NCBI GenBank assembly: GCA_029838195.1
Contig: JALGVJ010000064.1
Coordinates: forward strand, 1-15,526
Origin: Promethearchaeota archaeon
GTDB lineage: Archaea; Asgardarchaeota; Lokiarchaeia; Sigyniarchaeales; SOKP01
Length of the DNA stretch: 15,526 bases
Reading direction: 5' to 3'
Positions 9,628 through 14,968 of this stretch are shown here, one piece after another (position 1 is the stretch's first letter; each line of letters opens with the position of its first letter). The position numbers and the translations under genes are program-made. The notes beneath the pieces are model-generated. The model was not told where the DNA came from and did not search any database. It saw nothing but the letters and a program-made list of their open reading frames with translations.

Positions 9628-9645
9628 GTAATACGAAGGTATTAT
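9628..9645 (+). repeat. 18-bp quasi-palindromic motif, copy A (gtaatacgaaggtattat)
   Basis: 17/18 match to consensus RTAATACGAAGATATTAY; 90 bp upstream of the RHH gene. Confidence 0.7.
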
Positions 9646-9735
9646 TGGATATACGTACTACTAATGCCATATCCTAAATATGATTATTAATTATTATTAG
9701 TTAGGGAACTAAAAAATGCGAAAATCTCGATCAAA

Positions 9736-10227
9736 ATGCCTAGAAAAGAGATTGAATATAAAAATAAAATAAACGTGAGAGTAACCGAAGCTCAATATGA
9801 ACGATGGACTAAATTTACGGAAGATAAAAACAATAACTTTAAGTCTTTATCATCAATGATAAGATATGCCGTAGAAGAATTGATTGAAAATAAATTCGTG
9901 CAAAATAAAATGACCGAATATCAATCGGCCCTCCAGAAGGAAATCCGCAGATTAACCCAACAAAATGAGGAATTACTTGCTCAAAACTGAAAAATATTAG
10001 AAATAATCGCCAAAAAGAGCTCTCCTTCTAAAGACGATAAAATAAGAGAATTTCAAAGAGAAACTATCATTAATTTATTGCGGGACGAAGCGCTGGACGA
10101 AGAAGAAATTCAGCGTAAAGTTCATAGATTGACTGAAATAGAGATGTTGAAGATATTGAACGAGCTTCTTGGAGAAACCATAATTGTACAGGAAAAAAAT
10201 AAATATAGGACCCTTGAAGGGATGTAA
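9736..10227 (+). pseudogene. Ribbon-helix-helix/coiled-coil/putative winged-helix DNA-binding protein interrupted by an in-frame TGA (9988-9990)
   Basis: KINVRVTEAQYERW...SLSSMIRYAVEELIE is an RHH (CopG-like) pattern. After the TGA the same frame stays open for 78 more codons (KILEIIAKKS...IINLLRDEALDEEEIQRKVHRLTEIEMLKILNELLGETIIVQEKNKYRTLEGM*). Confidence 0.75.
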
Positions 10228-10228
10228 A

Positions 10229-10495
10229 TTGAAGGAAGCATAAAGCAGGTATCAGGATTATGAGGATCATTTCCTGGGGGAAAAACCACTCGTCTTATCC
10301 AAGAAAAATAGGTTTTTCGTGAATAATTATCTTTTTAAAGTGAAGAAGCGGAGCGATGGAGCTTACAGAAACCATAATTCCACCTTAAAAAGCTTTTTTG
10401 ATTACATTGATAAACCAGCCGATAAGATCACCAAGTTTGACGTGATAAATTATTTTAACGATGTTTTGGATAAAAAGGACATTAAAAAGAGGTAA
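10229..10495 (+). pseudogene. N-terminal core-binding (SAM-like) domain of a tyrosine recombinase/integrase, truncated by IS66
   Basis: Not in the ORF track. TTG at 10229, TAA at codon 5, then SRYQDYEDHFLGEKPLVLSKKNRFFVNNYLFKVKKRSDGAYRNHNSTLKSFFDYIDKPADKITKFDVINYFNDVLDKKDIKKR. The YL..K.RS...RN..S.LK.FF.Y.....IT..DV.NY pattern resembles XerC/D-type N-domains. The frame runs into the IS66 left TIR at 10492. Confidence 0.65.
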
Positions 10496-10541
10496 ATATT
10501 TAGTTTTTTGATCCTTACTTATTCTTCTTTCAATCGTAACA

Positions 10542-10548
10542 TTTATAT
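10542..10548 (+). promoter_or_regulatory. Putative archaeal TATA box for a leaderless transposase transcript
   Basis: tttatat lies 23-29 bp upstream of the ATG at 10571. Confidence 0.4.
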
Positions 10549-10570
10549 CTTCTAGTTAATTCGTAATAGC

Positions 10571-12339
10571 ATGGGTCTATGGCTCCCGCTCTCACTTCTC
10601 TTTGTCGTAATATTAATGCTCGGATACCACGCGCTCCGACAAAAAGGAAAGAAATATAGAAAAGCAATTAAAGATCATCAAGCCCAATTAATAGCCAAAG
10701 ACTCCAAACTACAAGAAATAAACTCCAAATTACAAGAGAAAGACTCCGAGAATCTACAGCTTAAGGAAGAGCTTCTGAAGATTAAATCGGGTAAAGAGAA
10801 ATTGAAAGATAACCTCGAAAAGTATCGAAAAGAGAATAAGCGTCTTCAGGAAGCCACCAAGAAAAAGAAAAGGCAACGCTCAGATGCCGGGAGACACCGG
10901 GATGTTTCAGCCCCGTCCAATAAAAGAACGGGCAAGCCGATAGGAGCTAAAGGCGGCGGCTTGAAAAATCCCAACCCGAAAGAGATAGACTACACGCGGC
11001 ATTGGCGCTTAGATTCTTGTCCTAAATGCAATGGTTCGCTTAAAAATTCCAACCCGATTGATCACCACGACCATCATATTCGGGATTTAGAGAAGCTAAA
11101 AAGGGGAATTCGTTTGGTTTATACAAAACACGTGATTTATCGCTACAAGTGCCCGCACTGTAAGTGCCTCGTCTCGAAGTATTTTGGAAAATTGAAAAAT
11201 GCCCGCTATGGCATCGGCATGATCGCTTTCGTGTTATACGAGCGTTTAGAACGCGGTGGCTCGTGGGAAGGCATTAGAACGACCTTAAATCACGTGATTC
11301 ACACGAAAGAATGTGTCCCCACCGTTAAAGCGTTCATCGATTGGATTCGAAAATACGAGACCGAGATGTGGGAGGTGTATCACGCGTTCTTGGATGCAAT
11401 TGGTCAGTCGTCTTTTGCCCACGTTGACGAGACGGGCATTCCGATGGACGGTCAAAATTGGTGGCTCTGGGTTATCGTTGCCACGGAAGTCGTTCTTTAC
11501 TTGCCTTCAGAAACCCGTGGTAGTGATGCCATGAAGACATCTTTCACGAATATAAGGGCATCTTGCTGTCCGATTTTTGGAGCGCTTATAATAAGTTAAA
11601 CGTCGAGCAACAGAAATGTTTGGAGCATTTAGTAAGGGAATTGAGGAAAATCAATCTGAGGGCAATAGACAAGCGCGACAAAGCGAAAAAGAAACTCGAA
11701 AAGGATGACGAGCTACGGGCTCGAGAAATTGTCCCTGATGAGACCAAGCTGAAGAAACAGGGGCGTCTTGCGAAACAACCCGAACCGCTGACGGATAAGA
11801 AGCGGGCGAAATTAGAAGAAATCATCGCCCAAAGCGAGAAGATCAGCTGCCAGCTGACGGCCTTTTACGAGTTCTTTCAACAAGCGTGGAAAAAGGACGG
11901 TAACGACATGAGCGTGCATGCTCCAATCGACAAGCGGATAAGCATTTCCGAGGCGGAGTTAAGGTTGCAATTGCTAATTCAAGAGGTCATGGAAGAAGGT
12001 CCTGCTAACGCGGATATAGAGCGAATGATAAAGCGCTTTGAAAAGTATGGCCCGTGCTTGTTTACCTACTTGGAAAACCCAAACATCATGCCCGATAATA
12101 ACGCCGCAGAGCGAGCCATTCGCCCTTTTGTGGTACAACGTAAGGTTTCGGGTAATTTTATAAGCCCCGAGGTCATGAAGATTTACGGAATTCACATGTC
12201 GCTTTATCGGACCTGTAAAAGGAATGATGTTAATTACGAGGAGGTCATCATCCCCTTGCTTAAAGGGGATACGGCCGAACTCTTGCGATTGTTAGGTCTA
12301 AGGGAAGGCGAGCCGCCGCCTGAAATTGAATGCAAGTGA
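10571..12339 (+). pseudogene. IS66 DDE transposase (TnpC-like, ~589 aa) with a 1-bp frameshift at ~11530-11536
   Basis: Coiled coil, GKPIGAKG linker, CPKC...CPHC zinc finger, HVDETG, then in the next frame DIFHEYKGILLSDFWSAY, QKCLEHLVRE and PDNNAAERAIRPFVVQRK. ORFs 10571-11599 and 11563-12339 join if one base is added. Confidence 0.92.
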
Positions 12340-13010: not shown

Positions 13011-13347
13011 ACTATTGAGTTAACTAGTAAATAAAATATTTATAATCTCATATATTTCGTGCAGGTTTATTATCTTTATATAGATTTCCATCACCCTACT
13101 TAATTAATTCTCCATTTAAAGCCTACTATTCCCCCCTATTCGATTAATACATCTTCTTTTTCGTGTTATAACTTCTCTAAGAAATCAAATAGATTCTTAT
13201 CAAATTTATCCGCTCTTCTTTCTAGCTCTTTCCATTTTTTTCCTTTTTTTAATTAGGAAAAGAATAAGGACTATTAAAATTAAAGGCAATCTCGCATATT
13301 TACTGTTTAATTAAGAAATAGGGGATGAACAGAGAGAGAAAGGACAA

Positions 13348-13704
13348 TTATGGAGTGAGAAATTCAAGATCATACTCAGAAATTATAATTTTTCCAGGAT
13401 ACTTTAAACATTCGACAGCATTAATTAGGTTATTTTTGATCAATCCTGCAATTTTCTTAGGATTTCTCGGATGAATTTTGATATAAATAATCCTACTCTT
13501 TTTTTGAAACTCTTTTTTCAAGATTAAGAAATCAGAGTTAAGAGTTAGGATTATAGCATCCTTCTTTATTGTTAATTCTGCTACATCACCTTTCTTTATT
13601 CCAAGTTGATTCTCATCTTTAAAGTGATTGCATCGTATTCAAGTCCTTTAATAACTTGTTTAATAGAAAGAGGTACATTTATTTTCATCTAAGAGGAACC
13701 TCAA
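13348..13704 (-). pseudogene. DUF5615 (PIN-like, VapC45-type) toxin pseudogene
   Basis: Reconstructs to MRFLLDENVPLSIKQVIKGLEYDAITLKDENQLGIKKGDVAELTIKKDAIILTLNSDFLIL...RIIYIKIHPRNPKKI...PGKIIISEYDLEFLTP after removing a 4-bp aaat duplication (~13677-13684) and restoring single bases at ~13620 and ~13391. Confidence 0.85.
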
Positions 13705-13875
13705 TTTCTAATGAACCTCATTATTCAGTAAGTTATCCAAATTAACTTGAGAAAGATTTTTTAACGCATCATTTCCTAATTCAATAATTTTTAAAGGTTT
13801 CCACATTTATGCCATAAGAATATGGTAATTCGAACATGTTTTATCATCGTATCAAGTTATTTTTAATTGAAGATT

Positions 13876-14220
13876 TTAAAATCTAATTCTAATGAAATTC
13901 GGCTCAATAATAATCTTTTTTCCTCTAACCTCTTCCAAAGGAAAACGCTCAAGAAATTGGGTAAATAATTTTTTAACAGCATTTTTTCCTTGAGTTTTTG
14001 GTCTAAAAATGATTATTCCGTAATATTGTTCTTGAATGTTAATGAAATCGGTATCTAAAGTAAGAAGAATTCTTCTTTCTTTAAGACAAATTTTATTTAA
14101 GCTAAAATCATCAATGCCCGTTAATTTTTCATGAAAAATAGATTCTACTTGATGATCCCCTACATCCTCAATTAGCTTTTTAAAAATAAAAGGTAAATTC
14201 TCGTCAATTTTAAATCTCAC
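13876..14220 (-). CDS. DUF5615 family PIN-like protein (VapC45-type toxin)
   Basis: [30 protein letters not shown] motifs; overlaps the upstream DUF433 gene by 11 bp. Confidence 0.9.
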
Positions 14221-14470
14221 TTACTTGACCTCGAGAATCATTTAAAGGAATAATTTCTTCCCTAGCTAACATCGCTCCATATTGAAGAGCTGCTTGAATG
14301 TGTTCTTTTTTTAAAGAGGGATACTCTTTCAAGATTTCATTTTCGCCCATTCCCTCAGCTAAACAGTCTAGAATTACGGACACTAACACCCGAGTATTTC
14401 TAATACATGCTTTTCCGTGGCAAACCTTCGGATTAAATGAAATATATTCTTTCCACTTCTGTTGTCCCAT
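14210..14470 (-). CDS. DUF433 domain protein (VapB45-type antitoxin)
   Basis: [56 protein letters not shown] is the canonical DUF433 pattern. Confidence 0.95.
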
Positions 14471-14811
14471 GATTTTTTAATATTACTTTAAATATATATA
14501 TCTTTTTATAATATAAAACCAAAAGAAATATCTGTGCGAAATGAAATTCTAAAATGGTTGTTCTTTGTATAGAGCGCTTAATATATTAAAAAAGATTAAA
14601 AATAGTGTAGTTTTTAGGATTTAGAGCTGGAACCATTATTATTGTTCTTAAACCTTCTTTTCCGACATTATTTCAATTAAATCTTACTCTTTAATAACAT
14701 TACCTATCAAATAAAAAATAACAAAAACAAAAAATAATAAGGAAAAATCATATAAAGTTAGAAAATGAAAAAAGTGAAAAAAAAGGACAACACTCGTACC
14801 ACAAAAGTATG

Positions 14812-14829
14812 GTAATACGAAGATCTTAC
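14812..14829 (+). repeat. 18-bp quasi-palindromic motif, copy C (gtaatacgaagatcttac)
   Basis: 17/18 match to consensus. Confidence 0.7.
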
Positions 14830-14950
14830 ATTTATTTCAGAAAAATTCAGATTTTTAATTTTTATTAAAATTTCACAAAATTTCTATCTAAATTATATAG
14901 TCATTTTAGAGTTTCATTACAAAAAACCCAAAATTCATTACATTTCGTAT

Positions 14951-14968
14951 ATAATATCTTCGTAATAT
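14951..14968 (-). repeat. 18-bp quasi-palindromic motif, copy D, inverted (reverse complement atattacgaagatattat)
   Basis: 17/18 match to consensus on the minus strand. Confidence 0.7.

Follow-up and report, generated by a model that had tools for sequence, protein, structure and literature searches.

Motif copies and the genes between them

A 15,526-nucleotide contig of a Promethearchaeota archaeon (hereafter the window; it is the entire contig C25 of a 4.5-Mb assembly of 33% GC, here labelled G000) carries four copies of an 18-bp quasi-palindrome, denoted O, among remnants of a tyrosine-integrase gene and toxin–antitoxin (TA) pairs. G, C and L numbers are our labels for genomes, contigs and loci. 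We propose, with a probability of about 0.72 and on the evidence of sequence comparison, that O is the core crossover site of a Promethearchaeota tyrosine-recombinase system that inserts elements and stacks TA cassettes, and that the window holds a relic of it.

A search of the window with the pattern RTAATACGAAGATATTAY at up to two mismatches returned exactly four matches, at 9628+, 12993+, 14812+ and 14951− (copies A–D, with 1, 0, 1 and 1 mismatches). The chance expectation is 0.01 copies, and none of 200 dinucleotide-preserving shuffles gave four. The initial annotation of this DNA had listed the same positions and strands, and two of its further statements hold as well: no copy lies in the first 9.6 kb at ≤2 mismatches, and all four fall outside open reading frames (ORFs) having family support. 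The resemblance it noted between copy B and a loxP arm, at 11 of 13 positions, is correct by eye but carries no weight. The rest of the genome contains a single additional copy at ≤1 mismatch (C72:1719−), so that 4/5 genome copies fall inside 5.3 kb, and the centre ACGAAG is common to all five. The consensus over 23 aligned copies, GTAATA-CGAAGA-TATTAC, consists of inverted arms around an asymmetric 6-bp centre. Downstream of the solitary C72 copy, at a distance of 86 nt, come a small ORF and a PIN-domain gene (VapBC-like); a nucleotidyltransferase-like gene adjoins this region (L001, C72:1719–2537), and the contig ends 1.7 kb away.

The features of the region are, in order:

9628–9645, +: motif copy A, ~90 nt upstream of the RHH gene
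9736–10227, +: RHH gene, encoding an RHH + coiled-coil + winged-helix-like protein; in-frame TGA (9988–9990)
10244–10491, +: N-terminal stub of an Xer-like tyrosine integrase; 82 aa alignable, matching the SAM-like N-terminal domain
10492–12562, +: IS66-like insertion sequence; ends GTAA...TTAC, 44% GC, transposase frameshifted into two frames
12993–13010, +: motif copy B, exact consensus match
13348–13806, −: decayed DUF433/DUF5615 TA pair (cassette 1), with broken reading frames
13797–13838, +: degenerate fifth copy with an X-like left arm (repeat family D5), dividing the two TA pairs
13876–14220 (DUF5615) and 14210–14470 (DUF433), −: intact TA pair (cassette 2), with family matches
14767–14811 (left arm X) and 14812–14829 (motif copy C), +: cassette-type site
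14830–14950, unstranded: C–D spacer, 121 nt, AT-rich
14951–14968, −: motif copy D, in inverted orientation

Copies A and B had been described as bracketing an RHH and integrase block. Such genes are there, but only an 82-aa stub of the integrase is left, cut off by the IS66-like element, and the RHH gene contains a stop codon. Intact homologues of the RHH gene, 161–165 aa long, occur in G017 and G010 and align across the window's stop; the TGA may reflect a nonsense mutation, read-through or an error of sequencing. This gene is the conserved partner directly upstream of the integrase gene, and its product is a candidate regulator or directionality factor. The integrase stub is 60% identical to residues 6–87 of an intact 341-aa homologue (P0003) and 92% identical to a second one, P0011, which is encoded on a 78-kb contig. 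No catalytic domain of this integrase was found anywhere in the window or the genome, nor does the genome contain a close intact homologue; it retains one intact PF00589 gene (C86:80276–80794) plus one fragment. The IS66-like element, a single-copy sequence in this genome, interrupts the integrase gene. As no target-site duplication is present, a deletion probably accompanied its insertion. Its 44% GC in a genome of 33% GC, its single copy, its split transposase and the missing duplication suggest recent acquisition followed by loss of adjacent DNA. On the other side of the module, the right flank of copy A, TGGATA..., is also found in G010 and L143, and we read copy A as a putative attL/attP-type junction beside the integrase module.

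For the interval between copies B and C, annotated as one DUF433/DUF5615 block, the family was right, but there are two pairs, split by the degenerate copy GTAATTCGAACATGTTTT (13821–13838+), whose left flank is the same as that of copy C. Cassette 1 shares 67–71% amino-acid identity with an L133 pair that gives matches to DUF433 and DUF5615. Cassette 2 has its 3′ end 38 nt from the degenerate copy and its promoter side towards copy C, and is 88% identical at the nucleotide level to a pair from a different genus (G010:C20) that sits 2.7 kb left of an arm-plus-motif copy. The unit formed by arm X and copy C scores 57 bits (E 8e-15) against our profile model R1. Read from copy D, the C–D spacer contains two GTAATGAA repeats; with its direct repeats, this flank may represent a site of platform type, and copy D itself may be a platform or host-type site. 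The spacer begins, from copy D, with atacGAAATGTAATGAA...TGTAATGAAA, and among the loci compared the same flank follows the motif only in L128 (2501–2545).

The order A, RHH(TGA)–integrase stub–insertion sequence, B, dead TA, degenerate copy, live TA–X, C and inverted D is that of a relic array. Because no cognate integrase remains, the array is frozen, and the region from 9.6 to 15 kb should be annotated as a decayed mobile-element/cassette relic, not as a working system. The proposal that the adjacent recombinase shuffles these modules at present falls with its gene. Comparison of the left flank with same-genus G001 and four other genomes gave weak scattered matches and no empty site for the window.

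Junctions, arrays and host copies in related DNA

In related DNA, breaks in synteny and in module content fall inside the motif or at its edge, as they would at a crossover site and in keeping with the initial suggestion of a tyrosine-recombinase site. In genus g11, a motif variant occupies a conserved intergenic place that separates TFB (TFIIB-like) and 206-aa genes from a Roadblock-like gene. The site is uninterrupted in G099 (attB). Contig C45 of G118 follows the host left flank through ...ATAATATGAAGAT and then diverges, and contig C46 of the same genome carries integrase, RHH and a foreign X arm ending in ACAATATGAAGATATTAC, followed by the host right flank at ~90% identity. All that the G099 site and the two G118 junctions have in common is AATATGAAGAT, the 11 bp at motif positions 3–13. 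We interpret the three sequences as an attB/attL/attR triad with the presumed crossover within the motif. Module switches at the motif form a second triad among metagenome loci, of structure a-O-b in L133, c-O-d in L123 and a-O-d in L141. Across all non-redundant pairs of compared contigs, 27/46 homology blocks end ≤12 nt from the right edge of the motif in both partners, and 0.6% of positions lie that close to the edge.

The motif or a variant stands 60–100 nt upstream of an RHH-integrase operon at five independent loci (the window, G010, G118, G052 and L143). Beside a motif variant, the operon is intact in L143, on a 19-kb contig, and broken in G010 and G118. In a Hodarchaeota/Promethearchaeota metagenome-assembled genome (MAG), the 38.5-kb contig G017:C24 (L039, L092, L093) is bounded by a 77-bp direct repeat, has an intact RHH-integrase pair at one end and is an integrated plasmid- or virus-like element. 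Because its repeat spans the same position upstream of the RHH gene, members of the integrase family appear to integrate via a site just upstream of that gene. What the repeat duplicates is the promoter with the 5′ leader of a gamma-carbonic-anhydrase-like gene of the host, and the contig also encodes a 2453-aa protein. The G017 variant GTAATACATTTAAATAC was considered as a repeated att core and dropped, its other copies being the promoter box of a paralogous gene family. A tRNA gene as target was likewise rejected, since neither the window nor any of five related loci contains one. With P0011 as query, viral and genome collections gave more distant loci only; the integrase-side junction pattern was recovered from G010 alone in the genome collection and from none of the viral contigs.

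A second form of the site carries a conserved left arm, X (...GGACAC-N5-CACC-ACAAAAGTATG), which copy C and the degenerate copy have in common with sites in G006, G007, G010, G064 and G118. The arm is 45–60 nt long in metagenome contigs, and conservation extends over 45–220 nt. An exact scan of metagenome contigs yielded 20 arm-plus-motif loci, in which further motif copies are spaced 0.5–2.5 kb apart and share the orientation of the arm-plus-motif match (7/7 copies at ≤2 mismatches; 12/13 at ≤3). Tandem arrays of one orientation occur in L135, L138, L124, L127, L125, L133 and L129, as they do in the window for copy B, the copy at 13821 and copy C. The modules between copies are mostly TA operons, including PIN with small partners, UPF0175 with PIN-like, DUF433/DUF5615 and nucleotidyltransferase (with HEPN by eye) pairs. 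Relative to the site, these operons are encoded on the other strand; ~40 nt separate their 3′ end from one copy, and their promoter side is towards X–O, a rule that the window order of copy B, dead pair, 13821, live pair–X and copy C obeys. The cassette-type array first suspected in the window finds support in the metagenome contigs.

The exact arm-plus-motif pattern, searched in 185,579 species genomes, was found in five Promethearchaeota or 'uncultured archaeon' MAGs and in no other named lineage; the only other match there, in a Bacilli MAG, and the matches in viral contigs represent a single phage region that is unrelated and has no copy of the motif, and they were set aside. In L129, L135, L133, L122 and L123, a conserved TATA-like box, CTTATTTAATCTTGACATTAAATATAT, lies ~70–100 nt left of the motif and points at it; it may be an outward promoter, or the arm may hold binding sites there. 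Contig G006:C145 (L015, 7267–13142) shows a different arrangement, two motif copies 4.8 kb apart around GH130 and two glycosyltransferase genes (families assigned by eye); on the outside, this motif pair is flanked by a 383-bp direct repeat (93% identity), which corresponds to the 3′ end of a gene that we identified by eye as hisS. A micro-ORF ending at the motif TAA ('...TTKVW*') was rejected on account of stops or frame changes in several copies.

Host genomes contain palindromes of the same kind. In 135 genomes of the family, the motif gave 68 matches at ≤1 mismatch, against 15 for the reversed control. Many are orthologous and stand before a TATA-like box between two divergent Roadblock-like genes, at the TFB locus, or upstream of either a ~380-aa gene or w121, a 121-aa gene with no assigned function. 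These host copies have conserved arms and a varying centre (CGAAG, CTAAG, TGAAG). The orthologous host sites of G000, ATAATATCAAGATAATAC and GTGATATCGAGATATTAT, have centres other than ACGAAG, and the five ACGAAG copies of that genome are the mobile kind. Cassette-type copies keep a constant centre, coincide with breakpoints and are located where two genes converge or 40 nt beyond a stop codon. The comparisons indicate that the mobile system uses the host palindrome as a landing site and that at least one host copy served as attB.

Outside the motif region, both ends of the window are repetitive. The unit at 288–415 comprises two exact tandem copies of 64 nt; the first 300 nt of the window recur at C71, C73, C50 and C87 with 84–99% identity, and the final 63 nt of that stretch recur at the ends of five further contigs; this is a dispersed repeat that breaks the assembly. 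At the other end (15406–15526), the contig terminates within a repeat 88–91% identical to C9:47852–47967 and C4:18435–18555, which runs >100 nt further at both of those places and is present in relatives G013, G119, G130 and G141.

Proposed mechanism and alternative explanations

The proposed system centres on an Xer-like tyrosine integrase encoded directly downstream of its RHH/winged-helix-like partner gene. Two integrase monomers would bind the inverted GTAATA/TATTAC arms, and strand exchange would take place in the asymmetric centre, with an expected cleavage stagger of 6–8 bp within AATACGAAGAT. Three forms of the site would take part. Host palindromes with the same arms and variable centres, at conserved promoter-side positions, would serve as attB; copies 60–100 nt upstream of the RHH-integrase operon would be carried by larger mobile elements; and in the cassette form O would be preceded by the 45–60-nt arm X, with modules of 0.5–2.5 kb held between O copies of the same orientation. 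These modules, mostly TA operons, would accumulate in arrays and reassort at O. We infer that this integrase family supplies the enzyme, that it binds in the manner described and that the cassettes move as circles. The reading of the motif as a recombination site is well supported by natural breakpoints, and the reading of cassette arrays is supported in related DNA.

Several observations weigh against this proposal. The symmetric arms are only 6 bp long, against 9–13 bp at characterised sites, a shortness noted at the outset and confirmed here, since symmetry ends after 6 bp; the extended conservation is one-sided, on the X-arm side. Linkage to RHH-integrase homologues exists at five loci, but an intact integrase of the window family was present in 0/20 metagenome array loci, one of which has just a 34-aa RHH-like remnant beside a motif copy. 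Arm-plus-motif copies are scarce in the species-representative genomes of the family, with ~10 strong profile matches in 135 genomes, so the arrays reside mainly in unbinned population DNA. Nine homologous TA-pair loci in other genomes lack the motif; TA pairs are therefore not obligate cassettes, and the motif as an obligate DUF433/DUF5615 partner was discarded. The orientation of the centre differs relative to the RHH-integrase operon (G118 versus the window, G010 and L143) and relative to the w121 gene (G006, G064 and G025 versus G010), for which simple integration fails to account. Conserved host copies adjoin TATA boxes, so the palindrome probably has an additional host regulatory role. 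Finally, no circular cassette junction was seen in the DNA compared.

The promoter-side position of the host copies also bears on the alternative raised at the start, that the motif is purely an operator, a site for the RHH/winged-helix protein or a host transcription factor that marks co-regulated promoters without any strand exchange. Copies lie 60–100 nt upstream of the RHH gene and in front of the VapBC-like pair on C72, orthologous copies accompany TATA boxes between Roadblock-like genes, downstream of the TFB gene and upstream of w121, and conserved arms with a variable centre fit a dimeric regulator. This part of the alternative probably holds for the host palindromes; the cassette-type copies differ. 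A regulator site leaves unexplained the breakpoints at the motif, the identical centre of the five G000 copies where the host sites differ, the uniform orientation within arrays and copies between convergent genes, for example G007:C303, and we regard an operator without recombination as unlikely. Recombination by a host XerA-type enzyme acting on dif-like sites, as with integrative mobile elements exploiting Xer recombination (IMEX) or pdif modules, would make the RHH-integrase module a mere passenger. The dif-like plan of inverted arms and a 6-bp centre, the lack of an integrase in most arrays and the intact PF00589 gene of G000 agree with it, as does the similarity of the integrases to XerA, their nearest solved structures being XerA proteins (PDB 5hxy, 4a8e). 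Against the archaeal XerA model NF040815, however, the integrases score 71–83 bits, far under the cut-off of 220. Several host loci per genome, in promoters, replace the one site near the terminus, array copies are direct where pdif modules have inverted flanking sites, and the motif is tied to the RHH-integrase operon at five loci; a host XerA as the acting enzyme thus seems improbable.

Arm and motif could together form a dispersed 55-nt repeat, such as a promoter, an insulator or a small-RNA element, carried along with TA operons. In that case the breakpoints would be products of ordinary homologous recombination or duplication between repeats. The arm is indeed conserved over 45–220 nt with a TATA-like box pointing at the motif, and homology blocks typically take in the arm. 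The G118/G099 triad and the L123/L141 pair share only 11–18 bp of motif, however, which is too short for homologous recombination, and homology stops sharply at the right edge of the motif, not randomly along the repeat. No Rfam family, conserved hairpin or conserved ORF was found for the unit, including an Rfam search of the window with E up to 1, and we consider such a repeat very unlikely. The last possibility is that the motif forms part of attC in a canonical integron, such as those described from Asgard archaea, or in a CALIN, that is, a cluster of attC sites without an integron integrase. The arrays here are similar in general layout; an enrichment of integrons and attC clusters is reported for Asgardarchaeota, and chromosomal integrons typically hold TA cassettes (PMC9668308). 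Nevertheless, P0011 scores 17.5 bits against the integron-integrase model TIGR02249, whose cut-off is 265, and P0003 does not match that model. The site lacks a RYYYAAC/GTTRRRY pair, neither strand gives an extended single-strand hairpin, and conservation is by sequence, not by structure. An attC-type hairpin was rejected by folding: six arm-plus-motif units, on both strands, form only the 6–7-bp mini-stem of the motif, and the C–D interval has no extended structure (z = −1.8). The motif was also absent from those portions of the supplementary texts of PMC9668308 that were available to us. An integron proper is thus hardly credible, and the likeness to an integron array drawn in the initial annotation does not extend to the enzyme or the site; its likeness to pdif modules fails on the direct orientation of the copies.

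Relation to known systems and significance

Against this background, the proposed recombination system can be placed beside three groups of elements: the archaeal integrons and attC clusters reported as enriched in Asgardarchaeota (PMC9668308); tyrosine-integrase elements integrated in Asgard genomes, for which an attachment motif of 11 bp is reported, AATTAACTTAT in Atabeyarchaeia (PMC11529989); and archaeal integrative elements with pNOB8/Xer-like tyrosine integrases (reviewed in PMC8371274). Relative to these reports, it is a variant combining integrative elements and integron-like arrays. As in integrons, small mobile modules all point the same way and are delimited by recombination sites; the cargo is mainly TA pairs, as in TA-rich super-integrons; a tyrosine recombinase gene lies at the edge of some arrays; and most arrays have no integrase, as in CALINs. 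Unlike integrons, the system has an Xer-like integrase in place of IntI, preceded by a conserved RHH/winged-helix partner gene, and its site is a sequence-conserved core of double-strand type with a one-sided arm, not a folded attC. Each of its cassettes brings its own upstream region and is transcribed in the direction of the preceding site, and host promoter palindromes can receive insertions in place of a dedicated attI.

Site-specific insertion at a short core is shared with the Asgard integrated elements (11 bp in the G118 triad and 11 bp for AATTAACTTAT; PMC11529989). With archaeal integrative elements in general, the system shares an integrase adjoining the att site and larger plasmid- or virus-like carriers, here G017:C24 and the L143 contig. 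Its target, by contrast, is a repeated promoter-side palindrome and not a tRNA gene, and its core also bounds integrase-less mini-modules in arrays. The inverted arms, the 6-bp centre and the Xer-like enzyme recall Xer/dif and the pdif sites of Acinetobacter plasmids, where small modules, often TA pairs, likewise lie between sites. The system differs from Xer/dif in symmetric arms of 6 bp, not 11, in several host copies per genome and in an element-borne enzyme with an RHH partner, and from pdif in array copies that are direct and not alternately inverted. We give about even odds to the bolder view that this is an undescribed, separately evolved form of integron-like cassette capture, in which an Xer-like integrase with an RHH/winged-helix partner, acting at a double-strand core of 18 bp that is at the same time a promoter palindrome of the host, inserts entire elements and also stockpiles and reshuffles TA and defence cassettes that lack an integrase and bear a 45–60-nt arm.

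To our knowledge, no genetic tool exists at present for Asgard archaea, and the compact pair of integrase and site would, if the proposal is correct, be a candidate for one. Arrays without attC structure would probably escape attC-based integron searches. Promethearchaeota are the archaeal lineage closest to eukaryotes, and the genomes of the relatives compared here encode actin-like proteins and numerous small GTPases. In these organisms, the system would be a mobile one that lands on promoter palindromes and would represent a second, independently evolved route to gene-cassette arrays, accounting for the exchange of TA and defence modules among Loki-type archaea.

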